A stretch of DNA of 64,000 bases from a virus (IMGVR_UViG_3300047160_035978:713-64712); one strand, 5' to 3'. Numbered from the stretch's first letter, positions 44,345-63,419 are shown. The notes: generated from the sequence alone by a model not told the origin. A program made the numbers and translations.

Positions 44345-44581
44345 TTAGGCGGCTGCCTTCTGGCGCTGCTGCTTCACCTTCGGCAGCTCGCCGTAAATCT
44401 CGTCATAGGTGACACGGTGGCCGAGGCTTGCGGCGTGGGCGATCAGCTTCTTCGCCATATCGGGGGGCACCGTCTGCCCACGTTCGTAAAAGGAAACGTT
44501 GCCCTGCGTGCATCCAAGGGCTTCGGCGATGGCGCTCTGGCTAAGGCCCAGACGCTCGCGGATGGCTTTGAAGGTGTTCAC
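44345..44581 (-). CDS. cro: Cro-like repressor
   Basis: LGLSQSAIAEALGCTQGNVSFYERG; divergent from cI. Confidence 0.85.
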   Translation of the reverse strand: MNTFKAIRERLGLSQSAIAEALGCTQGNVSFYERGQTVPPDMAKKLIAHAASLGHRVTYDEIYGELPKVKQQRQKAAA

Positions 44582-44587
44582 GAGCGC

Positions 44588-44651
44588 ACATTAGTCCGAC
44601 TAAAGAGGATTGTCAACAGTCAGACTGTTTGTTGCTTATTAGTCGTACTTA
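44588..44651. promoter_or_regulatory. OR region: PR promoter and three operators
   Basis: Minus-strand TTGACA (44611-44616)-17bp-TAATGT; palindromes TTAGTC-C-GACTAA (44591), AACAGTC-A-GACTGTT (44615), TTAGTC-G-TACTTA (44639). Confidence 0.8.
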
Positions 44652-44664
44652 TATGGTTTGGACC

Positions 44665-45663
44665 ATGCCATCCAGACCACTAACCACGGAACAACAGGCC
44701 GACGCCGCGCGGCTCAAGACCCTCTTCGAGAACTGGCGGGAAGGCCGGGTTGCTGGCGGCGACAAGCGCAGCTACGACGAGCTGGCGGCCTCGATCGGCA
44801 TGAAGCAAAGCGCCTTCAGTCAGCGACTCAACGGCACGATGGCACTGAATGCCTCGTCCGCAGCCAGCTTTGCCCGCCTGATCGGCTGTTCAGTGGCGGA
44901 TTTCAGCCCCACATTGGCTGATCAAATCTCGAAGCAGGCAGCCACGCTGGCGCCTTCAACGGGTCAAGCGAGCCGTGTGACCGCTTTCCATCCTGATGAT
45001 CCAGTCGGAGATGAAGAGGTGCGAATCGAAGAATCGCGCCTGGTCCGCTTCGCCGGCGGCCGCGGCCACGAAGCCCCGATTTACGAGACCGTGGAGGACA
45101 GCGAGCCCGCAACGTATCGGCAATCTTGGTTCCAGAAAGAGCGCATCAATCCGCTCAAGACCAAGCGCTTTCGGATCACCGGCCACAGCATGGAGCCGAT
45201 GCTGTTTCCGAACGACACGGTGCTGGTGAACATTGAAGAGACAACGATCCGGGACGGTCACATCTATGCTATTGCCCAAGGCAATGCGATGCGCGTCAAA
45301 GTGCTCTACAAGCGGCCGGACGGCGTTTTGCTTCGCAGCATCAACTGGCAGGAATACCCTGACGAACTGGTCCAGGGCGCCGACCTGGAAGAATTTCGAG
45401 TAATCGGAAAGGTGCGCGACAAATCTGGCCGAGGCGGCCTAGCTGGTGTCCTACCTGATTTCGCAGTTCCTCAGCCGGGACGCATCGGTGGCGGAATGGA
45501 CAAAAACATCATGCGCGAAATCGTGGAACTGGTCGAAGGGGCATTTCCGAATGCATCGGCGTCGACCCGCGCCAACCTCATCGCCGAACTGTACGAACTG
45601 CGTCGCGAGAGCCCAGAGGTCCCAACAGAAAGGCTCTTGCGAATTGTAAAGATTGCGTCCTAA
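44665..45663 (+). CDS. cI: CI-like repressor (HTH + S24 peptidase) with C-terminal helical extension
   Basis: RPLTTEQQADAARLK (lambda CI-like), ITGHSMEP, VKVL. Confidence 0.9.
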   Translation: MPSRPLTTEQQADAARLKTLFENWREGRVAGGDKRSYDELAASIGMKQSAFSQRLNGTMALNASSAASFARLIGCSVADFSPTLADQISKQAATLAPSTGQASRVTAFHPDDPVGDEEVRIEESRLVRFAGGRGHEAPIYETVEDSEPATYRQSWFQKERINPLKTKRFRITGHSMEPMLFPNDTVLVNIEETTIRDGHIYAIAQGNAMRVKVLYKRPDGVLLRSINWQEYPDELVQGADLEEFRVIGKVRDKSGRGGLAGVLPDFAVPQPGRIGGGMDKNIMREIVELVEGAFPNASASTRANLIAELYELRRESPEVPTERLLRIVKIAS

Positions 45664-48047: not shown

Positions 48048-48455
48048 TTAGGCTGCTTCCTTCTCCAGCCTCTCCATTGCCGCCCGAGCGAGGAATCCCG
48101 AGCGGGTCTCGCCAAGACGCTCCGCCCGATTGTCGATGGCGGTCAGCAGAGTCTCTGGGAGGGTGATGTTCAGCCGGATCGCCTTCTTGCTCAGCTTGGA
48201 GAGGTCCACCGCAACGAAGGCCCAGACGAAGCCGCGGTACTCGCGCTTGCCCTTGAGGTCTTCGATCTTGCTGGGAGCCGGAGCGCCGTGGCCCTTCTCC
48301 AGGTGATCCTCGAGCCAGAGCAGGGCGGCCTCCTCAGCGTTGGCCACGGCCTCGTCGAATGAGTCGCCGGCCGAGTAGCAGCCGGGAAGATCGGGAAACA
48401 CCACGCCGTAGGCCTGGCGGTCGTTGCCTTCTTCGATAGCGATGGGGTAGCGCAT
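48048..48455 (-). CDS. hicB: HicB antitoxin
   Basis: YGVVFPDLPGCYSAGDSFDEA, C-terminal RHH RLNITLP..TRSGFLARAA. Confidence 0.9.
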   Translation of the reverse strand: MRYPIAIEEGNDRQAYGVVFPDLPGCYSAGDSFDEAVANAEEAALLWLEDHLEKGHGAPAPSKIEDLKGKREYRGFVWAFVAVDLSKLSKKAIRLNITLPETLLTAIDNRAERLGETRSGFLARAAMERLEKEAA

Positions 48456-48511: not shown

Positions 48512-48694
48512 TTACTTCAGCCCGGCGTCCTTCTTGATCCGTGCGACGAGGCCGCCGCCCAAGTCTTTCTTGGGGTGCGGCACCGTGATCGTCAGCGGGT
48601 TGGTCGGGTGCTTGAACATGTGGTGGCTCCCACGCACGCGGTCGAGAACCCAACCTGCTTCCTTCAGCTGCTTGATCAGTTCGGCGCTCTTCAT
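48512..48694 (-). CDS. hicA: HicA toxin
   Basis: LKEAGWVLDRVRGSHHMFKHP..ITVPHPKKDL. Confidence 0.9.
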   Translation of the reverse strand: MKSAELIKQLKEAGWVLDRVRGSHHMFKHPTNPLTITVPHPKKDLGGGLVARIKKDAGLK

Positions 48695-48837: not shown

Positions 48838-49394
48838 ATGGAACACCAAGCCTTCGACCCGAATCTGTCCGCCGCCGTCCGGCACACCGCCGTCCAGGAC
48901 GCCCACGCCGACGCCCTGAGCCGCGAAGTAGGGCAGTGCCGCACCTGGTCGGAGGACTTCCTGCAAGCCCTGGAAGGCGAGTTCCTGGCCGACGCAGACG
49001 AGCGCCGCATGGACTTGATCCGGATCGCCGCCAACCGCCGCTGCCTCGCCGCCCAGCGCGCCCTGCATAGCCTGTTCCGCAAGCTCGGGGACGGCGCGCA
49101 GCTGACCGCTGACGAACGCGCCCTGGCCGAGCACGCCCGCGATCTGGTCGAGGCCTACGCCGAGCGCCGCGTAGAGCGGATCGGTCTGTGATCGCCTCCG
49201 CCCCCATCCGCGTCATCACCGACGCCGAAACCACCGAGACCACCTGGTCGGCCTTCTGCGCCGACAACCTCGAAGGCTTCGATCAGGACCAGCTCGACGT
49301 CATGGCGCAGGAGCTGCGCCTGCACGGCGAGACCGACATTTCCCACCTCATGCACTGCGGCGAGCGCTGCGTGCTTTCCCGCGTCATCCAGTAG
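48838..49394 (+). other. Two hypothetical early genes (48838-49191, 49188-49394)
   Basis: First ORFs after PL, GTGA overlap. Confidence 0.6.
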
Positions 49395-49402
49395 GAGGCA
49401 CC

Positions 49403-49942
49403 ATGCCCGCAGCCAAGAAGAAGTCCGCCACCGCCCGCGCCCCGAAGCGCGCCATCCTGACCTGCCCCGACTTCATCAAGGTCAGCGCCACCGGCAAGAA
49501 GCTCCCGGCCTCGGCCGAGAACCACGCCGCGGTGATCTGCACCAAGTACCGCACCCGCAGCGGCCTGCCACTGATGTTCACGGCGCGCGACCTCGGCAGC
49601 CACAGCTATGAGGCGGCGCTGAAGCTGCCGGCGACGTTCGAGTTGCTGGGCGAGAAGGACTGGCGCCTGCCGGACGCGACCGAGTCCGCTTTCATGCTCA
49701 ACCGCGCCAACTGGCCGGCGAAGGACGCGCAGTTCTTCCCGGGTGAGGCGGGCTGGCAATGGACGGGCGAACCCACGTCCGATTCGTCGTACGCCTTCGG
49801 CGTCAGCCTCCGCTACGGCTGCGTCGACTGGAGCTACCGCTACCGCGGCGGGCTCGTCCGGCTGTGCCGCGAGGTCTCCCCCCGTCAGGCTTTGGCTTTT
49901 GGCATCCCCGTGGGGCCGGGCGCGGCGAAGGGCAAGCGCTAG
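49403..49942 (+). CDS. DGR target protein 1 (DUF1566/CLec-like)
   Basis: GEKDWRLPDATE..WQWT; contains VR1. Confidence 0.85.
   Translation: MPAAKKKSATARAPKRAILTCPDFIKVSATGKKLPASAENHAAVICTKYRTRSGLPLMFTARDLGSHSYEAALKLPATFELLGEKDWRLPDATESAFMLNRANWPAKDAQFFPGEAGWQWTGEPTSDSSYAFGVSLRYGCVDWSYRYRGGLVRLCREVSPRQALAFGIPVGPGAAKGKR
49776..49885 (+). repeat. DGR variable region VR1
   Basis: 110-bp copy of TR with 15 mismatches, all at TR adenines. Confidence 0.97.
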
Positions 49943-49951
49943 GCCCTCGCC

Positions 49952-50609
49952 ATGAACGGCCAGCACGACTTCGCCCATTCCGAGCATCTGATGCGCGCCC
50001 GCCGCAACCGGTTCCTGGTGCACGCCGCCAGCTGGCTCGCGGCGCTGGGATTCCTCTACGGCCTCGGCGCGCTGGTCTGCAAGGTGATCGCCCGATGAAC
50101 GCCAACCTCTCCGAGCCCGTGCGCTCGCTCTATGTGGCGCACGGCTTCTTCTCCGAAGCCTACATGCGCCGGTTCTTCCCGAACGGCCCCTGCACCAAGC
50201 AGGAGGCCATCCCGAAGCGCGAGGGCCCGGCGAACGACGCCAGTCCCTACGACGCCCACCGCCAGCAGGGAGCCGCAGCGTGAAGCGCCTGAACGATGCG
50301 CTGGCTGGCCTGCTCGTGGGCTTCTTCCTTGGCCTGATGCTGTTCTGCCTGTTCGCACAGCCGGCCCACGCGGGCGGCTACCCGCCGCGCTCGGAACCGA
50401 TCCAGGCACCCGTCATCGCCCTGGTCCACGAGCAGCGCGGCTGCCCGCGCGGCCAGTGGCGCGCCTACTTCTTCCAGGACGCCTTCGAACCCGTCGCGTT
50501 CTGCTGGCGCCGCTGCGGCGACGTGGTGGAAGTCCTCGACCGCGCCAACCTCATCACCACCATGCCGGCCTCCCGCTTCGCGCCGGTCTCGCAAGGAGTT
50601 TCCCAGTGA
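49952..50609 (+). other. Three small early genes (49952-50098, 50095-50283, 50280-50609)
   Basis: ATGA/GTGA overlap chain. Confidence 0.55.
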
Positions 50610-51232
50610 ACGACCTCATTTCCGGCGTCAGCCTGATCACCGCAGCGCGCGAGCGCCAGATGCAGCCGCAGGCCGTCCTCGCATTCCGCGAGCGCCTGGC
50701 GTACCTGGGCGCCGACATCGCCGGCCTGATCGACGATCTGCAGCCGGCGCCGCTGCCGGCCAGCGACCCGGCCTTCATCGATCCCCTGGCCGAGCCCGAA
50801 ATCATCCTGCTCGACGCCAACTGCCAGCCGATGAAGCCGGACGCGGGCCGCGCCACGGCCTTCTACCTGCCGCAGTACCGGCGCATGTATACCGCCGACG
50901 TGGTGTCCGCCTCCAACTGGGCGGCGGCCGTCGCCATGGGGCCGGCCGGCCGGCTGTTCGGCGAAACCGACTGGCACCTGGTCCGCGTCAAGGAACTGGA
51001 GCCGCTGATCTGCCGCGAGCAGCACGACCCGGCCACCTATCCGGTGCTGAAGCCGTACACGCCGACCAACGACTGGTACTGGACCGCCGACCCGCATCCG
51101 TCCGGTTCGTCGTGCGCCTTCGGCGTCTACCTCGGCGGCGGCAGCGTCTCCTGGGTCAGCCGCAACGCCAGCGGGCTCGTCCGGCTGTGCCGCGAGGTCT
51201 CCCCCCGTCAGGCTTTGGCTTTTGGGAAGTAG
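50606..51232 (+). CDS. DGR target protein 2 (DUF1566/CLec-like)
   Basis: GTG after AAGGAG; GETDWHLVRVKEL..WYWT; contains VR2. Confidence 0.85.
   Translation: MNDLISGVSLITAARERQMQPQAVLAFRERLAYLGADIAGLIDDLQPAPLPASDPAFIDPLAEPEIILLDANCQPMKPDAGRATAFYLPQYRRMYTADVVSASNWAAAVAMGPAGRLFGETDWHLVRVKELEPLICREQHDPATYPVLKPYTPTNDWYWTADPHPSGSSCAFGVYLGGGSVSWVSRNASGLVRLCREVSPRQALAFGK
51099..51208 (+). repeat. DGR variable region VR2
   Basis: 110-bp copy of TR with 17 mismatches, all at TR adenines. Confidence 0.97.
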
Positions 51233-51240
51233 GCCAGGCC

Positions 51241-51516
51241 GTGTCCGCTCAGCCAGAACTCGCGATGCCCGGCCCGGCGACGCCCGACTACCTAGCGCGG
51301 CTGGCAAAGCATCGCCAGCTGGTGGCCGAGGTCGACCGTGACGAGCGGGCGAAGGGGCTGCCTCAGGCCGAGCTGTTCCAGCTGCAGCCGCCGGCGCCGA
51401 CCGATCCGGAGTACCCGGGCGATGACGTGCTGGTGGGTCTGGTCTGCGGCGCCCTGAAGGTGCCGCTGGAAACCGCCAGGGCGTGGCTGGAGCAGTACCC
51501 GCATTTTCCGCTGTGA
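51241..51516 (+). CDS. Hypothetical protein
   Basis: Co-oriented ORF between target 2 and ERF gene. Confidence 0.5.
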   Translation: MSAQPELAMPGPATPDYLARLAKHRQLVAEVDRDERAKGLPQAELFQLQPPAPTDPEYPGDDVLVGLVCGALKVPLETARAWLEQYPHFPL

Positions 51517-51557
51517 CTGAATTTTCAACTGCCGGCTCGTCCGGCAAAGGAACTGAT

Positions 51558-52319
51558 GTGAGCAAGCCCCTGACCGCTGCCTCCCTGATGGAGCGCGAGG
51601 AATCCCTGCCGGTGCCGACCACTGGCACGCCTGACAGCATGCTGGTCTACGCGATGCAGAAGGGCGCCAGCATCGCGGACATCAAAGAGCTGTATGCCCT
51701 GCAGCAGCAGTTCGAGGCCGACGAGGCCCGCAAGGCCTACACCGTCGCCATGGCTGCCTTCAAGGCCGAGCCGATGGAAATCCTCAAGCGCAAGCTGGTG
51801 AGCTTCACGACCCGCGACGGCGACACCACCAGCTATCGCCACGCGGAGCTTTCGGACATCACCGATGTGGTGGCGCCGGCAATGGCCAAGCACGGACTGA
51901 TGCACCAGTGGGATGTGCGCCAAGAGAATGGCGGCGTGGTGGTGGACTGCATCATCAAGCACGAACTCGGCCACTCCGAGAAGGTGACGATGTTCGCCCC
52001 GCCGGATTCCTCCGGCAAGAAGAACGCGATCCAGCAGATTGCATCGAGCACCACCTACCTGATGCGCTACACGCTGCTGGCCGCAACCGGCATGGCCACC
52101 AAGGGCATGGACGACGACGGCCAGGGCGGTGAGCCAGTGCTGATGACCGAGGAGCACGCCGACACCATTGACTCCCTGTGCAAGGAGATCGGCCCCAAGA
52201 TCCTCGGTAGCGTCCTGAGCGAGTACCGCGTCAAGGAGCTGGCCGAAATCCCCGACTCCGAGTACGAGGACATCGTCCGCCGCCTGAACGTCACCAAGCA
52301 GCAGCGGGCGGCGAAATGA
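51558..52319 (+). CDS. ERF-family single-strand annealing recombinase
   Basis: YRHAELSDI, KHGL, QQIASSTTYLMRYTLLAATG..DDDG. Confidence 0.85.
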   Translation: MSKPLTAASLMEREESLPVPTTGTPDSMLVYAMQKGASIADIKELYALQQQFEADEARKAYTVAMAAFKAEPMEILKRKLVSFTTRDGDTTSYRHAELSDITDVVAPAMAKHGLMHQWDVRQENGGVVVDCIIKHELGHSEKVTMFAPPDSSGKKNAIQQIASSTTYLMRYTLLAATGMATKGMDDDGQGGEPVLMTEEHADTIDSLCKEIGPKILGSVLSEYRVKELAEIPDSEYEDIVRRLNVTKQQRAAK

Positions 52320-52933
52320 CCGAGGAACTGGTCCAGGGCAGCCCCGAGTGGGTGGCCGCGCGCCTCGGCAGCTTCGGCGCCTCCATGCTCGGCGCGCTGA
52401 TGGCCAAGGGCGAGGGGAAGACCCGCGCCAAGCTGATCGACCAGCTCGCCTGCGAGCGCCTAAGCGGCAAGCCGCAGGGCTGGGAGGGCAACAGCGCCAC
52501 CGAGGCCGGCCACGCGCAGGAGCCGCTGGCGCGGCGCGCCTATGGCGAGCGCCATGGCGTCTTCGTGCAGCAGGTCGGCCTGATCCGCCACGCCGCGCTG
52601 CCGTTCTCCCACGCGAGCCCGGATGGCCTGGTGGACGAAGACGGCGGCTTGGAGCTGAAGTCCCACGTCAAGTTCATGACCCACTTCGCCGCGATCCAGG
52701 CCGGCATGAGCAAGGCGCACGTCTACCAATGCCAGTGGGGCATGGCCTGCACCGGGCGCAGCTGGTGGGACTACGGGCACTTCTGCGCCGAGGCGCCGGA
52801 GCACATGCGCTTGCATATGTTCCCGCGCATCCAGCGGGACGAAACCATCATCGCGACCCTGGCCGTGGCGATCCGCGACGCGGAAGTCGAGGTCGCGGCC
52901 AAGGTCGAGCAATTCTCTAAGAGGGCCGCATGA
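52316..52933 (+). CDS. YqaJ/lambda exonuclease-family protein
   Basis: QGSPEWVAARLG, ASPDGLV, LELKS, QCQWGM. Confidence 0.9.
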   Translation: MTEELVQGSPEWVAARLGSFGASMLGALMAKGEGKTRAKLIDQLACERLSGKPQGWEGNSATEAGHAQEPLARRAYGERHGVFVQQVGLIRHAALPFSHASPDGLVDEDGGLELKSHVKFMTHFAAIQAGMSKAHVYQCQWGMACTGRSWWDYGHFCAEAPEHMRLHMFPRIQRDETIIATLAVAIRDAEVEVAAKVEQFSKRAA

Positions 52934-53997
52934 GTACCGAACTCGAACTGGTCAACAAGGCCGTTGCGGACTTCGACGCCGTGGCCGAGGGTATCCAGTC
53001 CCTGAAGGCGCAGTATGCCGGCGTCGTCTACGACGTCAGCACCGGCAAGGGCATGACCGAGGCCAAGGGCGCCCGCGCTGCGATCCGCGAGCCCCGCTAC
53101 GCCATCGAGAACACCCGCAAAGCGGCCAAGGCCCCGATTCTGGCGCTCGGCAAGCGCTTGGACGGCCGCGCCGCCGAGATCACCGACGAGTTGCTGGCGA
53201 TCGAGGAACCGATCGACCAGCAGATCAAGGCCGAGGAAACGCGAAAGGAAGCCGAGCGCCAGGCCAAGATCGAGGCCGAGAAGAAACGCGTTGCGGACAT
53301 CCAGGACCGCATCAACGAACTGCGCGGCACCATCGGCGCGGCCAGCACCAGTTCTGCCGCACTGATCCTCGAGCATATCGGCGACCTGGACAGGATCCAG
53401 ATCGACGACAGCTTCGCCGAATTCCGCCAGCAGGCCGAGGACGCCAAGACGGCAACCCTCGCCACGCTGGCCAAGATGTATGACGAGCGCGTGCAGCACG
53501 AAGCCGAACAGGCTCGCATCAAGGCGGAGCGCGAGGAACTGACCCGGCTGCGCGCCGAGCAGGAAGAGCGCCAGCGGAAGGAACGCGCCCAGCGGGAGGC
53601 TGAGGAGGCCGAAGCCCGCAGGAAGCGCGAGGCGGAAGAGGCCGAGGCCCGCAAACTGCGCGAACAGGAAGAAGGTCGCCTCCGCCAGGAGCGCGCCGCC
53701 CTGGAAGCCGAGCAGGAGCGCCAGCGGCAGGCCCAGGCCGAACTCGACCGCCAGCGCGCCGACCTGGAGGCCAAGCGCCAGCAGCAGGAGCGCGAGGAGC
53801 GGACGCGCCGCGACGAAGCTGCCCGCGCCGAGCGCTTGCGCAACATGTCCGTGCAGGAGCGCTTCGGCGCTATCTGTTGGGACCTAGCCGGCAAGCGTCT
53901 GAACGACCACGACTTGTCCACCCGCTTCATGTCCGCTTTCGCCCGCGACGGCCTGGCGCTCGTGAAGGTCAAGGCTGCCATGCAGGAGGCCGCGTAA
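52930..53997 (+). CDS. Long coiled-coil protein
   Basis: Glu/Arg/Ala-rich heptads; located between exonuclease and ssb. Confidence 0.7.
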   Translation: MSTELELVNKAVADFDAVAEGIQSLKAQYAGVVYDVSTGKGMTEAKGARAAIREPRYAIENTRKAAKAPILALGKRLDGRAAEITDELLAIEEPIDQQIKAEETRKEAERQAKIEAEKKRVADIQDRINELRGTIGAASTSSAALILEHIGDLDRIQIDDSFAEFRQQAEDAKTATLATLAKMYDERVQHEAEQARIKAEREELTRLRAEQEERQRKERAQREAEEAEARRKREAEEAEARKLREQEEGRLRQERAALEAEQERQRQAQAELDRQRADLEAKRQQQEREERTRRDEAARAERLRNMSVQERFGAICWDLAGKRLNDHDLSTRFMSAFARDGLALVKVKAAMQEAA

Positions 53998-54431
53998 TGT
54001 TCACCACTCTTTTCCGCATCGGCCGCGACGCCGAGCTGCGCACCATCGCTAGCGGCGAATCCGTCACCGACCTGGCGCTGGCCTACAACTACGGCCGCAA
54101 GGGTCAGGACGGCAAGCAGCCGACCCAGTGGATCAAGGCCGCGCTCTGGGGCAAGCGCGCCGAGTCCCTGGCGCCCTACCTCAAGAAGGGCGGCCTGATC
54201 GTCGCCACGCTGGACGAAGTGCATATCCAGTCGCGCGAGCACGAAGGCAAGACCTACACCGACCTCGTAGCCCGCGTGGTCGACGTGCGGCTGGTGCCGT
54301 CGGCCAAGGCGCCGGAGAAGCAGGAGCAGCCGAAGCCCAAGCCGGCGCCCAAGCCCGAATCGCAGGGCGGCGGCGCATTCGTCGACGACGACATCCCATT
54401 CAATCGCAAGTCGGGCCTGGACGCGCTGTGA
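53997..54431 (+). CDS. ssb: Single-stranded DNA-binding protein
   Basis: RIGRDAELR, LWGKRAESLAPYLKKG, acidic DDDIPF tail. Confidence 0.9.
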   Translation: MFTTLFRIGRDAELRTIASGESVTDLALAYNYGRKGQDGKQPTQWIKAALWGKRAESLAPYLKKGGLIVATLDEVHIQSREHEGKTYTDLVARVVDVRLVPSAKAPEKQEQPKPKPAPKPESQGGGAFVDDDIPFNRKSGLDAL

Positions 54432-54721
54432 GCCTCCAGGACCTCTACCAGGACGCGCTCGACCACATCGCCAAGGTGGCGGGGATGGCACGCATCCAGA
54501 CCGACCGTCTGGCCTTCATCGAGGCGCGGGCCAAGACAGCCCTGTCCGGTGAGCGCTGGAACCCGCGCTATGTGAAGTACCCGAAGCAGTCGACCAAGAA
54601 GCACCTGGTCAAGCAGCTGCTGCTGGTGACCGACAACCGGCCGGAAGAGCGCCAGATGGTGATCGGCTGGCTTCAGGCCGGCGTGATTCCGGAGCCCACT
54701 CTCGAAGAGGCGGAAGGCTGA
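54428..54721 (+). CDS. Hypothetical protein
   Basis: GTGA overlap with ssb. Confidence 0.55.
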   Translation: MSLQDLYQDALDHIAKVAGMARIQTDRLAFIEARAKTALSGERWNPRYVKYPKQSTKKHLVKQLLLVTDNRPEERQMVIGWLQAGVIPEPTLEEAEG

Positions 54722-54939
54722 TGACCCGTCTCGGAGACGCCATCCGCCTCTACCGCCAGTCCCTGCGCCTGCTGCAGAAGGATGTGGCGGCCGAGATCGG
54801 CATCCCGGCTGGCGCTCTGTCCCGGCTGGAGAACGGCGGCGGCCTCGACATGGCCGACCTGGTGAAGGTCATGGCGTGGCTCACCGCAGGGCCGATCACC
54901 ACCGCAACCGAACAACCCCAGCAAGCGCTGGGCGTGTAA
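54721..54939 (+). CDS. XRE-family HTH protein
   Basis: LGDAIRLYR..LLQKDVAAEIGIPAGALSRLENG. Confidence 0.8.
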   Translation: MTRLGDAIRLYRQSLRLLQKDVAAEIGIPAGALSRLENGGGLDMADLVKVMAWLTAGPITTATEQPQQALGV

Positions 54940-54962
54940 CCCATTCCCCACAGGAGCATCCG

Positions 54963-55391
54963 ATGCCCGATTCCGCCGCTGTCGCCGTTTCCCGCTGGAC
55001 CAAGCTCGAGGAGGGCTGCGTCCGCGACAACATCCTCTACACCCGCCTGGACGGCTCGCAGTTCCAGCGTGAGTGGAGCCCCTTCCTGCCGGTCAACAGC
55101 CACTACGACATCGACAAGGTGGCGTCCGAGTGCGCGCTGCTCGGCGGCGGCTGGCACGTGGCCAACCCGCAGGAGCTGTTCACGACGCTGAACCACGCCA
55201 AGTACAACCCGGCGATGGACGAGGAGATCGCGGGCGGCAAGACCGGCGGCTGGGTCTGGACATCCCAGATCGATCCGTCCGATTCGTCGTACGCCTTCTA
55301 CGTCGGCCTCGGCCACGGCGGCGTCAGCTGGGGCACCCGCAGCGGCGGCGGGCTCGTCCGGCTGTGCCGCGAGGTCTCCCCCCGTCAGTAA
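54963..55391 (+). CDS. DGR target protein 3 (DUF1566/CLec-like), adjacent to avd
   Basis: AGGAG RBS; LGGGWHVANPQEL..WVWTS; contains VR3. Confidence 0.85.
   Translation: MPDSAAVAVSRWTKLEEGCVRDNILYTRLDGSQFQREWSPFLPVNSHYDIDKVASECALLGGGWHVANPQELFTTLNHAKYNPAMDEEIAGGKTGGWVWTSQIDPSDSSYAFYVGLGHGGVSWGTRSGGGLVRLCREVSPRQ
55276..55385 (+). repeat. DGR variable region VR3
   Basis: 110-bp copy of TR with 16 mismatches, all at TR adenines. Confidence 0.97.
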
Positions 55392-55415
55392 CTCGGCTTT
55401 TGGCCTGACAGCACC

Positions 55416-55865
55416 ATGAATCCCACCATCCCTCACATCGTGAAAGCCGCCGGCAGCCTTCTGCTGGAAGTGGAGAAGGCTGTGGCGGACTTCCCGAGGA
55501 AGCACCGCTATAGCCTCGGCACGGATCTGAGGGATGGCGCGATCAACCTGGTGCTGTTGGGCCAGGAGGCGAGCAGAGCGGGACGGGAGCCGAACCGCCA
55601 GCGTGCCCTGCTGCGCGAGCTGTCCCGCTGCATCGACAAGCTGAAGCTGCAAATCCTCATGGGCCACCGCCTGCAGTGCTTCAGCTTCGCGCGGTGCGAG
55701 CTGCTGACCACGATGGCCGCGAGTTGCGGCCGGCAGTGCGGCGGCTGGCTGAAGGCCCATACCATCAAACACCCGAAAGGCCAGAATCCTGCCGCTTCAG
55801 GGCGGCAGGAGCGCGCCGAGATTCTGAGTACCGCTGCCGCCTCCGGCCAGGGGGCTTACGCATGA
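55416..55865 (+). CDS. avd: DGR accessory variability determinant (four-helix bundle)
   Basis: FPRKHRYSLGTDLR ... CGRQCGGWLKA; between VR3 and TR. Confidence 0.9.
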   Translation: MNPTIPHIVKAAGSLLLEVEKAVADFPRKHRYSLGTDLRDGAINLVLLGQEASRAGREPNRQRALLRELSRCIDKLKLQILMGHRLQCFSFARCELLTTMAASCGRQCGGWLKAHTIKHPKGQNPAASGRQERAEILSTAAASGQGAYA

Positions 55866-57217
55866 CGACGCCACGCTACCAGACCGGATGCGTGGCCGGG
55901 TCCCAAGCGCAGCGGGATGCGTCCGATTCGTCGTACGCCTTCAACGTCAACCTCAACAACGGCAACGTCAACTGGAACAACCGCAACAACAGCGGGCTCG
56001 TCCGGCTGTGCCGCGAGGTCTCCCCCCGTGAGAATCAGGGTGTAATACTCCGTGAGCTGCATGCCGCCTACCGCAGCGCCCGCGCTGGCAAGGTGCCGAG
56101 CGCCGATCAGCTGCGCTTCGACTGCAACTGGATGGAGGAATTGCTGGGGCTGCAGGCCGAGCTGAACGGCTTCGCCTGGAAGCCCGGCCGCAGCACCCTG
56201 ACCATCGCCAGCAGGCCGAAGGCGCGCGAGATCCATGCGCCGGCCTTCCGCGACCGCGTCGTGCACCACGCCCTGATGCCATACCTTGAGGCCGCCTGGG
56301 AGCCCGTGTTCATCCACGACTCCTACAGCAACCGGAAAGGCAAGGGCACGCTGGCGGCGATGAAGCGGGCCCGGCAGTTCATCCGCCAGGTGCACAGCGG
56401 CCAGGGCGGTGGCTGGTGTCTGAAGCTCGACATCCGCAACTTCTTCAACAGCATCCGGCGGGACATCCTGTGGGCGCAGCTGAAGGGGCGCCTGGTCCGC
56501 GCCGGCGCGCCGAAGTGGGTGCTGCGCGCCGTGCACGCCCTCCTGCGGCAGTCCCCGCTCGCCGCCGGCGTGCTCGACCTCACCACCGCTGCGCAGCGCG
56601 CCCTAGTGCCGCCGCACAAGCGCCTGGCCAATGCAGGGCAGGGCAGGGGGCTGTGCATCGGCAACCTGTCCTCCCAGTTCTTCGCCAACGTCTACCTCAA
56701 CGACCTCGACCAGTTCGTCAAGCATGAGCTGAAGGCGCAGCGGTATGTCCGCTACGTCGACGACTTCCTGCTGATCCACCAGGACCGCGAACAGTTGCAA
56801 AAATGGAAAGAGTTGGTCATCGCCTTCCTGCGCGACCGGCTCGGCCTGGAGCTGAAGGACGAAGGCGAACTGAAGCCGCTGACCGAGGGCGTGGATTTCC
56901 TCGGCTACGTCATCCGCCCCACCCATACCACCGTTCGACGCCGCGTCGTCTCCCACGCTCGCGAGAAGCTGTCGCTGTGGGAGCAGCAGCACGTTACCGC
57001 CGGCAGCGCCCGCGCCACGCCTGAGCAGTATCGCCAAGTCCGCGCTGTCTGGGCCTCCTACGACCTGGGCCACTTTCCCCATGCGAACAGCCACCGGCTG
57101 ACGCAGGACTTCCACCGCCGCTATCCCTGGCTGCACCAGCTGGCCGAGGTGCCGCGGCGATTCCATAACCGACTCGAAGGAAAGCACGTGACGATCAAAC
57201 TGGTGGTGGCGGCATGA
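55862..57217 (+). CDS. DGR reverse transcriptase (N-terminus includes translated TR)
   Basis: FRDRVVHHAL, LKLDIRNFF, GLCIGNLSSQFFAN, YVRYVDDF, GVDFLGY; ATG overlaps avd stop. Confidence 0.95.
   Translation: MTTPRYQTGCVAGSQAQRDASDSSYAFNVNLNNGNVNWNNRNNSGLVRLCREVSPRENQGVILRELHAAYRSARAGKVPSADQLRFDCNWMEELLGLQAELNGFAWKPGRSTLTIASRPKAREIHAPAFRDRVVHHALMPYLEAAWEPVFIHDSYSNRKGKGTLAAMKRARQFIRQVHSGQGGGWCLKLDIRNFFNSIRRDILWAQLKGRLVRAGAPKWVLRAVHALLRQSPLAAGVLDLTTAAQRALVPPHKRLANAGQGRGLCIGNLSSQFFANVYLNDLDQFVKHELKAQRYVRYVDDFLLIHQDREQLQKWKELVIAFLRDRLGLELKDEGELKPLTEGVDFLGYVIRPTHTTVRRRVVSHAREKLSLWEQQHVTAGSARATPEQYRQVRAVWASYDLGHFPHANSHRLTQDFHRRYPWLHQLAEVPRRFHNRLEGKHVTIKLVVAA
55920..56029 (+). ncRNA. DGR template repeat (TR)
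   Basis: Ten AAC codons in a GC-rich genome; invariant source for VR1-3. Confidence 0.97.
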
Positions 57218-57674
57218 GCCTGCCTATCTGCGGAGATACCCACGCCCTACTGTCGCAGCTGGAGAAGTCCGGCGCCGAGTTCGGTCTGGTCGCGTCCAGC
57301 CCCAGCCTGCCGGAGAACGTGCGCCTGGAGAACCAGGAGGACATCCAGCGGGTGATGGTGAGGGTGCGGCTGGCGGTGAACACCGGCGCGCGGGAGAAGA
57401 GTCTGTGAACGGCGACTACGTCCCTCTGGTGTTCAACAAGGCCGATCCCATGGTGATCGTGTTCCGTCTGCCCGAGGCATTGCCCAGCGGCTTTTGCTTC
57501 AGCGGCGGATACGCGGTCAACTTCCAGATGGTCGACTGGTTCCAGTCCCGCCCCGAGCTGGGCGAGGATGCCCTGCGCGATTTCATCCGCCGCAAGCCCT
57601 ACTACAAGGCCGGCGGCAACTTTCTGGTGCTGGCGCGCGCCGGTTCGGCTTTCCTCGTGGATGTGCCGGCATGA
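57214..57674 (+). other. Two small hypothetical genes (57214-57408, 57405-57674)
   Basis: Overlap chain. Confidence 0.55.
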
Positions 57675-59608
57675 GCGAAATCGAAATCCGCCACTTCCAT
57701 ATGTGCTGCGGCTCCGGCGGCGGCAAGAAGGGCTTCAACCGAGGCACGGCTAGGGTTGGCCGCATGGTTGCAGTGCCGCGCTGCATCGGCGGCGTCGACA
57801 ACGATCCGGATGCGATCGAGGACTTCAACGCCGAGGGCGGTGCAGCTGGCACGGTGCTGGACCTCTTCACGCGCGAGCAGTATCGGGCTTTCCACGGCCA
57901 CGAGCCACCGGAAGGTTGGCGCGAGGCGACGCCGGCGGACATCATCCGCGCCGCGCACAACCTGCGCCCGCACGTCATCTTCATGTCGGCACCGTGCAAG
58001 GGCTTCTCCGGCCTGACCTCCGAGACCAAGAGCCGGGAGGAGAACTACGTCGCGCTCAACGAGCTGGCGCTGCGCTGCGTCTGGCTTTGCCTGGAGGCCT
58101 GGAAGGATGACCCGGTGGAATTCATCCTGTTCGAGAACGTGCCGCGCATCATGCACCGCGGCAGGCCGCTGCTGGAGCACATCCAGGCGCTGTATCGGGC
58201 CTACGGCTACGTCTATGCCGAGACCACCCACGACTGCGGAGAGCTGGGCAACCTGGCGCAGAGCCGCAACCGCTTCTTGATGGTCTCTCGCAATGCCGAG
58301 AAGGTGCCGAGCTTCCTGTACGAGCCGCCGCGGCGCCCGCTGCGGGCGGTGGGCGACGTGCTGTCGCGCCTTCCGATGCCAGGCACTGCCGCGGCGGCGT
58401 CGAACCCGCTGCACCGGTTGCCGCGCCTTCAGTGGAAGACCTGGGTGCGCCTGGCCTTCGTCCAGGCTGGCAAGGACTGGCGCTCCCTCAACCGCCTGCG
58501 GGTGGTGGACGGCGAGCTGGCCGACTTCGGCATCGTGCCCGACACGATCTATCGCAACGATGCCTTCGGGGTGAAGGGCTGGGAGCAGTCGGCTGGCACC
58601 ATCACCGGCAACGGCCGCCCCGCCGCCGGCGCCTTCAGCGTGGCAGACCCGCGCTTCGATCCCAATCTCTACGACTGCAGCCAGTACGGCGTGCAGCGCT
58701 GGGACCAGACCGCGCGCACCGTGATCGGCCTGAAGTCGCCAGGCCAGGGTGGCTACAGCGTGGCGGACCCCCGCGTCGGCCATGGGCCCTCTGGCCCGCA
58801 CTTCAGCAACGTCTACCGCGTCGTGCGTTGGGACCAGGTCGGTCCGACGATCTCCAGCGGCCACGGCCCCAGCGCGGGCGGCATGGCTGTCGCCGACCCT
58901 CGGCCGGGCTGGGATCGCCACCAGAACGCGCTGCAGGTCGGTGAGTGGGACAAGCCCACCGGCACGATCATCGGCGGCGGCAAGGGTGTGCAGGGCGGCT
59001 GGGGCTCGATCGCCGATCCGCGCCTGAACTGGGGTGAGGGCGCGCACGGCAGCAAGCTGCAGGTGCAGGACTGGGATGGACATGCCGGGACGATCACCGG
59101 CGCGCGCTTCCAGAGCGGAGCCCAGGCGGTGGCGGACCCGCGGCCCGGCCTCGATCGCGGGAAGGGTGACCACTACCTGACCTGCGGCCACTATGGCGTC
59201 ATTCCATGGGATCGGCCGTCGAATGCCGTCACCGGCGCCGGGCGCCATGACAACGGCTTCGGCAACGTCGCAGACCCGCGGTTGCCGGCGCCAGCTGACC
59301 GCCTCAACGCCATCATCCTCGCCGAGGACGGCACCTATCACCGCCCGTTCTCGACCCTGGAGAACGGCGCCCTGCAGAGCTACGTCGACTTGGAGGAATG
59401 GGCCGACTTCCGCATGGCGGGTAACTCCGAAAGCCGGAAGCGGGAGCGCATCGGAAACATGGTGCCGCCGGACACGGCGCAGGCCATCGCCAGCCAGATG
59501 TACAAGACCCTCCTGCTGGCCTGGTCGGGCGAGACCTTCATCCTCAGCAACGAGCCGGTGTGGGTGCGCGAACAGATCATCGCCATTTCGTGCGGGAGCG
59601 CTGCGTGA
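57671..59608 (+). CDS. DNA cytosine-C5 methyltransferase with six tandem internal repeats
   Basis: HMCCGSGG (motif I variant), SAPCKGFS, FENVP, IGNMVPP; W-x-T-I-x-G...ADPR repeats. Confidence 0.85.
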   Translation: MSEIEIRHFHMCCGSGGGKKGFNRGTARVGRMVAVPRCIGGVDNDPDAIEDFNAEGGAAGTVLDLFTREQYRAFHGHEPPEGWREATPADIIRAAHNLRPHVIFMSAPCKGFSGLTSETKSREENYVALNELALRCVWLCLEAWKDDPVEFILFENVPRIMHRGRPLLEHIQALYRAYGYVYAETTHDCGELGNLAQSRNRFLMVSRNAEKVPSFLYEPPRRPLRAVGDVLSRLPMPGTAAAASNPLHRLPRLQWKTWVRLAFVQAGKDWRSLNRLRVVDGELADFGIVPDTIYRNDAFGVKGWEQSAGTITGNGRPAAGAFSVADPRFDPNLYDCSQYGVQRWDQTARTVIGLKSPGQGGYSVADPRVGHGPSGPHFSNVYRVVRWDQVGPTISSGHGPSAGGMAVADPRPGWDRHQNALQVGEWDKPTGTIIGGGKGVQGGWGSIADPRLNWGEGAHGSKLQVQDWDGHAGTITGARFQSGAQAVADPRPGLDRGKGDHYLTCGHYGVIPWDRPSNAVTGAGRHDNGFGNVADPRLPAPADRLNAIILAEDGTYHRPFSTLENGALQSYVDLEEWADFRMAGNSESRKRERIGNMVPPDTAQAIASQMYKTLLLAWSGETFILSNEPVWVREQIIAISCGSAA

Positions 59609-60831
59609 GCCGTCCCCGCATCCAGGCCGACCTGTTCAGCGCCTCCCCGCGCATGGAGGTCGGCGAGGCCATGGAACTGACCGTCCAGTCGCTTCTGGCC
59701 CACGCCACGGTGCATGAGCACTGGGCCATCGCTTGGTCCGGCGGAAAGGATTCGACTTGCACCTTAACGCTGGTGATCGCGCTGATCGAGAGCGGAGCCG
59801 TGCCGCGGCCGAAGTCACTGACGGTCTTCTATGCCGACACCCGCATGGAACTGCTGCCGCTGGCAGTGGCTGCGATGGCGATCATTGCCCGGCTTCGGGA
59901 GATCGGGATCCGGGTCGAGATCGTGACGGCGCCGCTGGACAAGCGCTTCTTCGTCTACATCCTCGGCCGTGGCGTGCCGCCGCCGAACAACAATACGCTC
60001 CGCTGGTGCACCCGGCAGATCAAAGTCGACCCGATGCAGGAGGCGCTGGGCGCGCGCCTGGAGGAGCTTGGTGGCTCCGCGGTGATGATCACCGGCGTCC
60101 GCGAGGGCGAGTCGGCGGTGCGCGACCGGCGCATCGAGATGAGCTGTTCCAAGGACGGCGCCGAATGTGGCCAGGGTTGGTACCAGAAGGTGGTGCCGGA
60201 GTCGCCGGGCCTGCGCGGCAAGCTGGCGACCTTGGCGCCGATCCTGCATTGGCGGGTCTGCCTGGTCTGGGATTGGCTGCGCATTTACGCGCCGATGCCG
60301 GAGTACGGCGCCTGGTACACCGCGCCGATCGCTGATGCCTACGGCGGCGACGAGGCCGAGGAGATCAACGCGCGCACCGGCTGCGTGGGCTGTCCGCTGG
60401 CCGAGAAGGAAACGGCGCTGGATGCCGTCCTGCTCACGCCGGAGTGGTCCTATCTCGCGCCCTTGCGCCGCCTCAAGCCGATCTACCGCTGGCTGCGGAA
60501 GCCCGAGAACCGCCTGCGCAAGCCAGGCCTGGAGCCGCTGAAGAGCGGGGGTTTTTCATCCAACCCGCAGCGCCTGGGCCCGCTCACCTTCGAGGCTCGG
60601 CTGGAGGCGCTGGGCCAGGTGTTGGCCATCCAGGCCGAAGTGAACAGCGCCGCGGCAGAGCAGGGGCGGCCGGTGCTGGACCTGCTCAATGCCGAGGAAG
60701 AAGCCCGCATCCGGGAACTGATCGCGGCGGAGACCTGGCCGGACGGCTGGGAGGGCGATGAACCCACGGGTGACGTGCCGCTCGACAAGGTGAACGCGGG
60801 CGGGTCGGTCCAATGGCTGCTGGTGCGCTGA
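59605..60831 (+). CDS. PAPS reductase-family (DndC-like) protein
   Basis: WSGGKDST, RWCTRQIK, GVREGES..R, RTGCVGCP. Confidence 0.85.
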   Translation: MSRPRIQADLFSASPRMEVGEAMELTVQSLLAHATVHEHWAIAWSGGKDSTCTLTLVIALIESGAVPRPKSLTVFYADTRMELLPLAVAAMAIIARLREIGIRVEIVTAPLDKRFFVYILGRGVPPPNNNTLRWCTRQIKVDPMQEALGARLEELGGSAVMITGVREGESAVRDRRIEMSCSKDGAECGQGWYQKVVPESPGLRGKLATLAPILHWRVCLVWDWLRIYAPMPEYGAWYTAPIADAYGGDEAEEINARTGCVGCPLAEKETALDAVLLTPEWSYLAPLRRLKPIYRWLRKPENRLRKPGLEPLKSGGFSSNPQRLGPLTFEARLEALGQVLAIQAEVNSAAAEQGRPVLDLLNAEEEARIRELIAAETWPDGWEGDEPTGDVPLDKVNAGGSVQWLLVR

Positions 60832-61264
60832 TGGGCGGCAAGACCGTGTCACCGGAAGTTGTCGCCCTGGCGCTGAAGATCGCCGACAGCGTGTCCCGGT
60901 CTGATATCGAGTGCTACTGCCTGATGACCAAGAACCGCCGCATCTGGTGGTACGACACGGCCGTTGCCGAGCCGGAGGATGCCGAGTTCGTCGCCGAGGC
61001 GGTGCGCTACCTCGATCTGCGCGGCCTGCTCGTGCACCACGAAGCGGACGGAAAGCTGGTGCGGTTCAAGAAGGAGGGCGAAGCCTGATGGCCGAGCAAA
61101 TCAAGATCGAGTGCGGCGATCCCCGCTGCACGACCTGCGGTCTGGAGATCACTACCGGCCTGATGGCAGTGTTCTGCCCGCGCCGGCAGCAGTGCGAGTT
61201 CTATCCGCAGGAGCCGGAGTTGCAGGAGTTCGTCGAGGAGCTGCGCAGCGGGGTGGCGGCATGA
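60831..61264 (+). other. Two small hypothetical genes (60831-61088, 61088-61264)
   Basis: TGATG overlaps. Confidence 0.55.
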
Positions 61265-61599
61265 CACCCGAGCGCATCCAGCTGAGCCGCGCCAAGGGCT
61301 GGCGCATGCCGCCCAATACGGTGAAGGTCGACCGGACTACGAAGTGGGGCAATCCTTTCCGTGACTACGGACCGCCGGTGAAGCACCTGCTTGAGGTCTG
61401 GGGCTGGAAGCTTCGCAACTGGGGGGAAGAGTGCGGGACCGCCGAGGAAGCCGTCCAGCGCTTCCGCGCATGCGTCGCCTTCGATGGAGCATCCATCGCT
61501 CTGGCGCGCAAGGAATTGCGCGGCAATAACCTGGCTTGCTGGTGCCCGCCGGGAGCGCCCTGCCATGCCGATGTGCTGCTGGAGATCGCGAATGGATGA
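61261..61599 (+). CDS. DUF4326 protein
   Basis: VDRTTKWGNPF, LRGNNLACWC..PCHADVL. Confidence 0.85.
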   Translation: MTPERIQLSRAKGWRMPPNTVKVDRTTKWGNPFRDYGPPVKHLLEVWGWKLRNWGEECGTAEEAVQRFRACVAFDGASIALARKELRGNNLACWCPPGAPCHADVLLEIANG

Positions 61600-61870
61600 C
61601 ATCCGCGACCAGCTGCTGTCCGACCTGGCCAAGGCCGAGCTGAAGGCCTGGGAATCCCTGGCCCGCTACAAGTTCTGGATGTTCGGCTACCACGCCGCCG
61701 ATGTGGTGCGAATCAACCGGCGCCTGCGGCTGAAGCGGCCCAACCCTTTCCGCGTCATCGTCATGGTGGCGCGCGAGGTGCTGAAGGCGTGGCCGCGGCC
61801 TGTCTCAATTCCTCGGGAGATTACCCAGAAAGACCTGGGATTTGAGACTGAGCTGAAGGAGGCGGCGTGA
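61592..61870 (+). CDS. Hypothetical protein
   Basis: Co-oriented ORF. Confidence 0.55.
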   Translation: MDDIRDQLLSDLAKAELKAWESLARYKFWMFGYHAADVVRINRRLRLKRPNPFRVIVMVAREVLKAWPRPVSIPREITQKDLGFETELKEAA

Positions 61871-61872
61871 TG

Positions 61873-62022
61873 CTACCTCTTTTGCGCCGCCATCAGCGCC
61901 TGCGCCTCCGACTCGCTGATGGTCTTGCCGCCGACCGTGCTGGAAGCGCAGCGGGTGCATTTCTGCTGCGGGCCTTGCGGCACTGGCTTCTTGCAACTCG
62001 GACAGATGACGTAGGTGGCCAC
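61873..62022 (-). CDS. Small antisense zinc-ribbon protein (49 aa)
   Basis: GTG after AGGAG; CPSC...CTRC. Confidence 0.55.
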   Translation of the reverse strand: MATYVICPSCKKPVPQGPQQKCTRCASSTVGGKTISESEAQALMAAQKR

Positions 62023-62069
62023 GGCCTGATCTCCTCGGTGTTGTGCGGCAAGCATACACCGGGTCAGGC

Positions 62070-62081
62070 GGGGGGGGGGGG
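62070..62081 (+). repeat. Poly-G homopolymer (G12)
   Basis: Twelve consecutive G, 4 nt upstream of GTG 62086. Confidence 0.9.
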
Positions 62082-62085
62082 TGAC

Positions 62086-62601
62086 GTGAGCCTCTTCCCG
62101 CTCATCCGCTTCGACTCCATCCCACCGGACCAGGCCAACGACGCCCTGCGCCGCTGGGGCCATCGCATGGGCGCCGTGGAGCGGCCCTACGACAATACCC
62201 CCTGGGTGCACGGCCTGTTCCACGCCGAGCAGCTCGTGGCGCTCACCTATACGTCGACGCTGATCCGTGAGCACGTGGGCGGCGGCCTGGGCCATCTGGA
62301 CCGCTCGAACTGCCTGGAGCTGGCGCGCCTCTGCGCAGACCGGCCAGGCCTATGCCGCGTGGCACTCCGGCTGTGGCGCGAGTTCGTGTTTCCTGGCCTG
62401 GGCGTGCCAGTGGCGATCAGCTATCAGGATGCGGACTTGCACAGCGGCAACACGTACCGGTTCGACGGTTGGGAAAAGGTCGGCTTCTCGCGCAGCGGCA
62501 GCAGCGATCCGCGCACCGGAAGACAAGGCCGTGATCGGGTCATCTGGGCCTGGCCGCGCGGGGCTTGCGCCCGGCTGGCCGAGCGGCGGGGGGCGGCATG
62601 A
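62086..62601 (+). CDS. Mom-like (GNAT-fold) DNA modification protein
   Basis: LELARLCA, AISYQD..HSGNTYRFDGW resemble Mom-family motifs. Confidence 0.6.
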   Translation: MSLFPLIRFDSIPPDQANDALRRWGHRMGAVERPYDNTPWVHGLFHAEQLVALTYTSTLIREHVGGGLGHLDRSNCLELARLCADRPGLCRVALRLWREFVFPGLGVPVAISYQDADLHSGNTYRFDGWEKVGFSRSGSSDPRTGRQGRDRVIWAWPRGACARLAERRGAA

Positions 62602-63419
62602 AGGTCTCGCGCCCCCCCCTGAGGTATCACGGCGGCAAATGGAAGATCGCCGAATGGGTGATCAGCCATTTCCCGCCGCACAAAGTGTACGTCGAGCCCT
62701 GCGGCGGGGGAGCCAGCGTGCTACTCCGTAAGGCGAGGGTGCCGACTGAGATCTACAACGACCTCGACGCCGAGGTCGTGAACTTCTTCCGCGTGCTGCG
62801 GGACGAGGCAATGGCCCAGCGCCTGGCTGAAGCGCTCGCGCTGACGCCGTACGCCCGCGACGAATATGCCGACTGCTACCAGTCCAGCGCCGATGCAGTG
62901 GAAGCAGCGCGGCAGCTGGTGGCGCGCTCGTTCATGGGCATGTCCAGCAAGGGCATTTGGCAGAAGTCCGGCTTCGATGCGCGAGTGAACGATGACGGCT
63001 TCGTCGCGCGGGTGAATTCGCTGAGGGCGATGCCGGAGGTCGTGCTGCAATGCGCCGACCGGCTCCGGGGCGTGGTGATCGAGCACGGCGACGGCGTGAA
63101 ACTGATCAGCCGCTTCGACCGACCCGACTGTCTAATCTACATCGATCCGCCGTATCTGCCTGAGACGCGCACCGTCAGCATCTACGCGCACGACATGAGC
63201 GGGCCTGGCCACGTCCGGCTGCTGGAGACGATCCGCGGCCTTCGCCAGGCCATGGTCATCGTCTCCGGCTACCCCAGCGAGCTATACGACAACATGCTGC
63301 CCGGCTGGCAGTGCGTCACCCGCGATGCCGTGGCGGACACCGGCGCAGGCCGGGTGGAGGCGCTGTGGCTGAACCCCGCCTGCCAAGCCGCGCGGGCCAA
63401 TCAACAGGAAGCCGCATGA
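62598..63419 (+). CDS. dam: DNA adenine methyltransferase (D12 class)
   Basis: RYHGGK, YVEPCGGGASV, IYNDLD, IYIDPPY. Confidence 0.9.
   Translation: MKVSRPPLRYHGGKWKIAEWVISHFPPHKVYVEPCGGGASVLLRKARVPTEIYNDLDAEVVNFFRVLRDEAMAQRLAEALALTPYARDEYADCYQSSADAVEAARQLVARSFMGMSSKGIWQKSGFDARVNDDGFVARVNSLRAMPEVVLQCADRLRGVVIEHGDGVKLISRFDRPDCLIYIDPPYLPETRTVSIYAHDMSGPGHVRLLETIRGLRQAMVIVSGYPSELYDNMLPGWQCVTRDAVADTGAGRVEALWLNPACQAARANQQEAA

Follow-up and report, generated by a model that had tools for sequence, protein, structure and literature searches.

The stretch of viral DNA analysed here (the window: 64,000 nt, positions 713-64712 of the 64,712-nt provirus record IMGVR_UViG_3300047160_035978) carries between positions 49403 and 57217 three small target genes (T1-T3), an accessory gene (avd), a template repeat (TR) and a reverse transcriptase (RT) gene (Table 1). 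Each target contains a 110-bp variable region (VR1-VR3) that ends 2-19 codons upstream of its stop codon. These parts are very probably a complete diversity-generating retroelement (DGR) of the Avd-TR-RT type, borne by a temperate phage within its early recombination operon. A preliminary description of the sequence had proposed a complete DGR with one TR and three dispersed VRs, and this proposal is supported by a DGR-type RT, an Avd-like protein, a TR, C-terminal VRs and lectin-fold targets. What the targets bind, what the motif behind each VR does and whether this particular copy is active are parts of the reading that we infer. The nearest RTs (58-75% identical) lie on four contigs from Nevskia metagenome-assembled genomes (MAGs), labelled L009-L012, which carry three, two, three and three VRs, respectively, with differences from their TRs at adenines only.

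Table 1. Coordinates of the retroelement and of neighbouring genes in the window (L009-L012, related Nevskia contigs; GC3, GC content at third codon positions; ORF, open reading frame; HTH, helix-turn-helix)
Feature	Coordinates	Strand	Description
Target T1	49403-49942	+	179 aa; Lcl_C/DUF1566; PF07603 39 bits; GC3 0.93; orthologues in L009, L011, L012
VR1	49776-49885	+	15 differences from TR, all at TR adenines
Post-VR1 flank	49886-49902	+	C marker and TTGG-N3-TTGG; candidate target-recognition element
Target T2	~50606-51232	+	208 aa; GTG start picked by GC3; PF07603 41.9 bits; orthologues in relatives
VR2	51099-51208	+	17 differences from TR, all at TR adenines
Post-VR2 flank	51209-51225	+	C marker and TTGG-N3-TTGG; candidate target-recognition element
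Target T3	~54963-55391	+	142 aa; stand-alone minimal C-type-lectin-fold domain adjoining avd; PF07603 38.5 bits
VR3	55276-55385	+	16 differences from TR, all at TR adenines
Post-VR3 flank	55386-55403	+	C marker, stop codon, then TCGG-N3-TTGG, non-coding here
avd	55416-55865	+	149 aa; putative divergent accessory variability determinant; between T3 and TR
TR	55920-56029	+	110 nt with 24 A and ten AAC codons; invariant GC-rich 38-nt 3' end common to all VRs
RT ORF	55862-57217	+	RVT_1; conserved core from ~56048; ORF as read contains TR
Intervening early genes (non-DGR)	51558-54939	+	Erf, YqaJ exonuclease, DUF1351-like, SSB, 97-aa ORF, HTH regulator
SSB	53997-54431		PHROGs match
Cro-like HTH gene	44345-44581	-	Heads leftward operon with DnaB, terminase, portal, capsid and tail genes
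CI-like repressor	44629-45663	+	Peptidase_S24 domain; divergent from Cro-like gene
HicB antitoxin	48048-48455	-	Strong Pfam match
HicA toxin	48512-48694	-	Strong Pfam match
C5 cytosine methylase-domain protein	within 57671-63419		645 aa; downstream of RT, same operon
PAPS-reductase-domain protein	59560-60831		Downstream of RT, same operon
Dam-like N6-adenine methyltransferase	62565-63419		Downstream of RT, same operon

One template and three variable regions

The strongest evidence for the DGR is the distribution of mismatches between the TR and the VRs. The three VRs align with the TR in register and without gaps, and all 48 mismatches fall at TR adenines, for which the chance is ~2e-32 if mismatches were placed uniformly (24 A in 110 nt); there is no non-adenine mismatch among the 330 VR bases compared. 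Within the variable part of the TR every adenine (23/23) is changed in at least one VR, and the one remaining A (56016), which belongs to the invariant 38-nt 3' block, is unchanged in all of them. Pairwise comparison of the VRs gives 14-18 differences, exclusively in TR-adenine columns, and the VRs are therefore separate products of one template. Read in the VR frame, the adenines of the variable part of the TR lie in the ten AAC codons and in GAT, TAC and AGC, from which no adenine substitution can reach a stop codon. The theoretical repertoire per target is 4^23 (~7e13) DNA sequences and ~4e13 protein sequences, as enumerated over these 13 adenine-bearing codons and leaving out the two GAG codons of the 3' block.

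The VR coordinates, mismatch counts and lack of indels that the preliminary description gave were all reproduced, as were its ten AAC codons; the protection from stop codons, which it had noted for AAC, holds for any adenine substitution. It had placed VR1 and VR2 about 6.1 and 4.8 kb upstream of the TR, and the measured distances are 6144 and 4821 nt. Its view that the three VRs arose by independent retrohoming is sound, given that they differ mutually only in TR-adenine columns. A scan for further VRs, which it had suggested, found none in the whole provirus record, tail genes included.

A repeat search of the window recovers the TR and the VRs as a four-copy direct-repeat family that starts at 49741, 51064, 55241 and 55885 and spans 148 nt at 70-80% identity. 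Homology between the TR region and the coding sequence upstream of the VRs thus exceeds 110 bp, at lower identity, and because it does so the TR evidently originated as a copy of a target 3' end. Between the avd stop codon and the TR (55866-55919) lies a degenerate copy of the target coding sequence found just upstream of the VRs, with an equivalent in L009-L012; its translation resembles the pre-VR segment of T3 with the Trp codons lost. This stretch is a trace of the origin of the TR as a duplicated target 3' end. Four of the five elements also conserve the first ~20 nt past the avd stop.

The TR and the VRs can be told apart immediately behind the 38-nt block, where the TR reads GTGAG and every VR reads GTCAG; this G/C marker is fixed in all five elements and 14 VRs. 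A TYGG-N3-4-TYGG motif follows within ~10 nt of 13 of the 14 VRs, with the fourteenth one base off, and is kept whether the stretch is coding (..ALAFG) or lies behind a stop codon. The motif occurs 11 times on the plus strand of the window, three times after VRs. The shared GC-rich block, followed by this marker and the VR-only motif, has the layout of the initiation of mutagenic homing sequences IMH and IMH*, by which VR and TR are distinguished; the motif would have a role in target recognition.

A mechanism can be modelled on the paradigm of Bordetella phage BPP-1. The operon transcript, including the TR, would be reverse-transcribed by a complex of RT and Avd with frequent misincorporation opposite template adenines, and the resulting cDNA would replace the last ~110 bp of any of the three target genes. 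Transfer would be directed from TR to VR by the GC-rich 38-nt 3' block that both have unchanged, in combination with the VR-specific flank, in which a fixed C (G in the TR) precedes TYGG-N3-4-TYGG.

Avd, the reverse transcriptase and its start

Both proteins of the retroelement were found where the preliminary description had placed them, with the YVDD and GNLSSQ motifs that it had read in the RT. The RT carries IGNLSSQ, which fits the DGR signature [I/V/L]GxxxSQ (as defined in PMC7826257), together with the catalytic YVDD motif. Among solved structures it is closest to Brt, the RT of the Bordetella phage (8ub7, E 1.4e-31), with group II intron RTs 20 orders of magnitude weaker at ~2e-11. The product of 55416-55865 matches the NCBIfam model NF033474 DivGenRetAVD over model positions 3-104 of 104 (E 3e-11, 43.5 bits against a cut-off of 80) and the Pfam model bAvd (24.5 bits against a cut-off of 40); Avd is the only family that it matches in either collection, and it has no sequence match in the PDB. 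The position of the gene between a target and the TR is canonical. From its sequence matches and this position, the product is read as a divergent Avd.

The start of the RT merits separate treatment. From the last base of the TR up to the conserved RT N-terminus (residue 19 of Brt corresponds to position ~56060), no ATG, GTG or TTG occurs. The RT frame is open across the entire TR, in the same frame as the VRs, and the only in-frame upstream start near the TR is the ATG at 55862, which overlaps the avd stop codon (ATGA). The RT of this phage probably starts there and would be translated through the TR. One codon of the TR 3' block is TTG in L010, ATG in L011 and GTG in L012; it is GTC in the window phage and in L009. 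The ATG that overlaps the avd stop is out of the RT frame in L010 and L011. An RT N-terminal extension as a generally conserved peptide is rejected on this ground and because the TR frame of the Burkholderia phage Magia, described below, differs from that of its VRs. Judged by these reading frames, overlap of the RT ORF with the TR, involving no less than the TR 3' end, is common to the whole clade. A conserved RNA structure at the TR 3' end and RT 5' end was sought across the five elements, and RNAalifold returned a positive (unfavourable) covariation term and many broken pairs, with coding constraint as a confounder. A search of 44-58 kb against Rfam returned no family, and promoter and terminator scans were at or under shuffle expectation.

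Target proteins and their place in the phage genome

T1-T3 each exceed the gathering score (34.9 bits) of the Lcl_C family, PF07603, formerly DUF1566. The longest ORFs would start at 50132 for T2 and 54876 for T3; these starts are rejected because third-position GC places them near 50606 and 54963, and in the case of T2 the reading frame shifts at ~50600. T1 has basic N- and C-termini, and ~65 aa at the N-terminal side of T2 lie outside the Lcl_C match. Hydrophobic segments, signal peptides and lipoboxes are absent from all three proteins, with a maximum mean Kyte-Doolittle value of at most 1.21 (15-residue window; 0.95 in T1). An AlphaFold2 (AF2) model of T3 built from 26 homologues has a mean predicted local distance difference test (pLDDT) score of 94.4 and matches the C-terminal domain of Legionella Lcl best (8q4e, Z 12.8, root-mean-square deviation 2.8 A over 114 residues). 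Many C-type lectin-like domains match it with Z ~7-10, as do the DGR variable proteins TvpA (Z 7.9) and Mtd (Z 7.5). The T3 family comprises ~25 clusters of proteins of 130-160 aa, with a common ...RRV(S/P)xxQ tail and hypervariable columns at the VR site. Homologues of T1 are scarce (seven matches among 5.8 billion proteins). Neither PHROGs nor NCBIfam contains a match to T1-T3, and the same is true for most of the small neighbouring ORFs. One T3-family protein of 163 aa (P0015, on a 963-nt Logan contig) runs beyond the usual ...SQ end into sequence that resembles the RT N-terminus of this clade; it may represent a reading through the TR into the RT, or a junction between target and RT on a short contig.

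The phage is temperate, and its host is probably Nevskia. The Cro-like and CI-like genes form a divergent immunity switch at 44345-45663, and the GC content of 44-48 kb (58-60%) is below that of the remainder. The structural operon occupies 1-45 kb on the minus strand, and the targets are on the opposite strand. A tightly packed rightward operon begins at 48838 with T1 behind two small ORFs, T2 behind two more and Erf behind another. It continues with the exonuclease, the DUF1351-like gene and SSB, then the HTH gene behind a further small ORF, T3, avd and TR/RT, followed by two small ORFs, the C5 methylase, the PAPS-reductase-like gene and the Dam-like methylase. The ERF, exonuclease and SSB genes of the preliminary description are confirmed by Pfam and PHROGs and lie between VR2 and VR3. 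The methylase and PAPS-reductase genes probably have anti-restriction or DNA-modification functions. The HicAB pair is located past the CI-like repressor region and ahead of the rightward operon. The 355-aa protein encoded between the exonuclease and SSB (52930-53997) has weak, sub-threshold matches to DUF1351 and to a TrlF-family ATPase model. In lambdoid phages, the recombination genes lie in the pL operon, which in lambda also houses gam, ral and sieB. By synteny, the rightward operon would be the counterpart of the lambda pL recombination operon and would be expressed early.

This setting bears on what T1-T3 might do. We tentatively suggest that they are early-expressed intracellular lectin-fold binders that have no part in receptor binding and are diversified to track partners in the cytoplasm that themselves vary. 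These might be host defence proteins, in which case the targets would serve counter-defence, or proteins of superinfecting phages, in which case they would serve exclusion. T1, T2 and T3 orthologues occur at matching relative positions in L009, L011 and L012, with mosaic recombination genes between them, and L010 has only T2- and T3-like targets. The position resembling that of the lambda pL operon and the retention of three orthologous targets in three of four related phages agree with intracellular binders but are no proof of them. It is rather unlikely that T1-T3 are instead virion components, such as receptor-binding adaptors or decoration proteins, that are encoded outside the tail module and allow host-range switching as in BPP-1. 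The majority of viral DGR targets have been classed as tail proteins and the rest as "unknown" (Roux et al. 2021, PMC8144416), the absence of a signal peptide also fits a virion protein, and the ~60-65 extra N-terminal residues of T1 and T2 could act as an anchor. However, T1-T3 lie on the strand opposite to the whole structural operon and are interleaved with Erf, exonuclease, SSB and HTH genes downstream of the CI-like repressor. T3 is, moreover, a bare lectin domain of 142 aa without an attachment module, the targets lack PHROG matches and the tail genes of the record contain no VR.

Activity, objections and comparison with known systems

The DGRs of sister phages vary between assemblies. 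JGI contig Ga0070741_10000537 and the L009 MAG contig represent the same phage and have a single difference in 16,979 nt, which lies at a TR-adenine column of VR2; the chance of a random site falling on such a column is ~0.4%. L009 T1 and a variant in ENA are identical at 169 of 180 residues, and all 11 differences are at TR-adenine codons. L012 T1 and its ENA variant share 147 of 162 residues, with all 15 differences confined to residues 121-144, which are the VR. The preliminary description had held that a lack of variation at VR positions matching TR adenines would point to an inactive relic; VR-restricted variation is seen between assemblies of these two sister phages (L009 and L012). Such differences indicate that the DGRs of this clade have been active in nature, and recently. 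Retrohoming activity of the copy in the window is strongly suggested by analogy with them.

It is improbable that this copy is a frozen relic, that is, an intact-looking cassette in which retrohoming has ceased and the VRs record past events only. The divergence of Avd would fit a relic, as would the GTC here at the codon that provides a canonical RT start in L010, L011 and L012, and no second copy of the phage was found with which its VRs could be compared. However, the RT motifs and the Avd ORF are intact, as are all 24 TR adenines and the three target ORFs, and the nearest relative, L009, which has the same GTC codon and upstream ATG, has T1 and T2 that vary between assemblies only at TR-adenine positions. 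The lack of non-adenine mismatches across the VRs also implies little drift after the last events.

Several observations weigh against a complete DGR of the known type at this locus. Avd scores under both curated cut-offs, and none of the canonical start codons falls between the TR and the conserved part of the RT. In BPP-1, a hairpin/cruciform downstream of the VR (an 8-bp GC stem with a GRNA loop) is required (PMC3240598), and no comparable GC hairpin with a GRNA loop was found after the VRs. DNA folds of the 60 nt around each of eight VR ends, taken from the window and its relatives, do not exceed shuffled sequence in stability (z -1.3 to +1.6), with a weak structure of 5+3 bp after VR3 only; a post-VR hairpin is not a universal defining feature of DGRs. 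A further point is the substitution spectrum. Over the 14 VRs of the five elements, 215 adenine substitutions comprise 141 A>G (66%), 43 A>T (20%) and 31 A>C (14%), which departs from the raw misincorporation of the Bordetella RT-Avd complex (dA most, then dC, then dG; PMC7826257). The bias towards G may stem from selection or from a different enzyme bias. Finally, searches for this very phage in another sample were negative: an exact 29-nt pattern from a VR end identified no other copy in IMG/VR and only the L009 sister phage in metagenomes, and protein searches returned no near-identical T1-T3 variants. Plain paralogy or gene conversion among four lectin-domain 3' ends, without reverse transcription, would account for homology that extends past 110 bp but is refuted by the mismatch pattern and can be dismissed as vanishingly improbable, since neither process would restrict 48 of 48 differences to the adenines of one copy, the adenine-only pattern recurs in five elements, and the A-rich copy is the sole non-target copy and lies beside RT and Avd.

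The layout of this DGR is of a known kind. In DGRs associated with phages, targets elsewhere in the prophage, not adjacent to the cassette, are frequent, and single TRs that serve several dispersed targets in one prophage have been catalogued (Wu et al. 2018, PMC5758913). In the same survey, VRs of the DUF1566 type (CLec2) make up 14% of DGRs. Targets of this category ("d"), for example Legionella LdtA, likewise have the VR in a DUF1566/Lcl_C domain; LdtA is a surface lipoprotein, whereas T1-T3 are without signal peptide, lipobox or hydrophobic segment. The BPP-1 prototype (mtd-avd-TR-brt) shares with the window the order target-avd-TR-RT, adenine-specific differences, an AAC-rich TR and a C-terminal VR in a C-type-lectin fold, and its Brt is the best solved match of the RT. 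It has a single target, Mtd, which forms the tip of the tail fibre and is encoded in the late region, whereas the window has three small non-tail targets in an early operon. The TR and a spacer are intergenic in BPP-1, where a GC hairpin/cruciform follows the IMH (PMC3240598), whereas in the window the RT ORF overlaps the TR and no comparable hairpin was found.

The window adds one well-formed DGR and a small Nevskia-associated prophage clade to a catalogue of tens of thousands. It illustrates, cleanly and compactly, a phage DGR that bypasses tail fibres and acts on three conserved, very small lectin-fold proteins, which lack signal peptides and are encoded in an early recombination operon. 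Isolates with RTs that are ~40% identical include phages of Pseudomonas, Burkholderia and Shewanella, among others. The plan is common to isolates such as the Burkholderia cenocepacia phage Magia, and a cultivable member could address the purpose of non-structural phage DGR targets.

Magia (MT701587, locus L046; PMC7883833) is temperate and has small lectin-fold targets that flank its recombination genes, in the order repressor, lectin-fold gp57 (remote), nuclease, RecT, ATPase, regulator, lectin-fold gp47, gp46, Avd and RT. Its RT is ~39% identical to that of the window, and its target proteins have no BLAST-level similarity to T1-T3. The recombination module consists of RecT and PD-(D/E)XK in Magia versus Erf, YqaJ and SSB in the window. 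Two Magia targets adjoin avd and one is remote, whereas in the window one adjoins and two are remote; the Magia TR lies inside the annotated RT coding sequence (L046 8888-8979) in a frame that differs from the target frame, and the window TR is in the same frame. A TR/VR scan of Magia recovers three VRs, in gp57, gp47 and gp46, with 15, 8 and 11 adenine-only differences, respectively. In the genome announcement, possible targets are limited to genes 47 and 57 (PMC7883833). The gene for gp46 (L046 7891-8355), which is annotated as hypothetical, contains the third of these VRs at L046 8245-8335.

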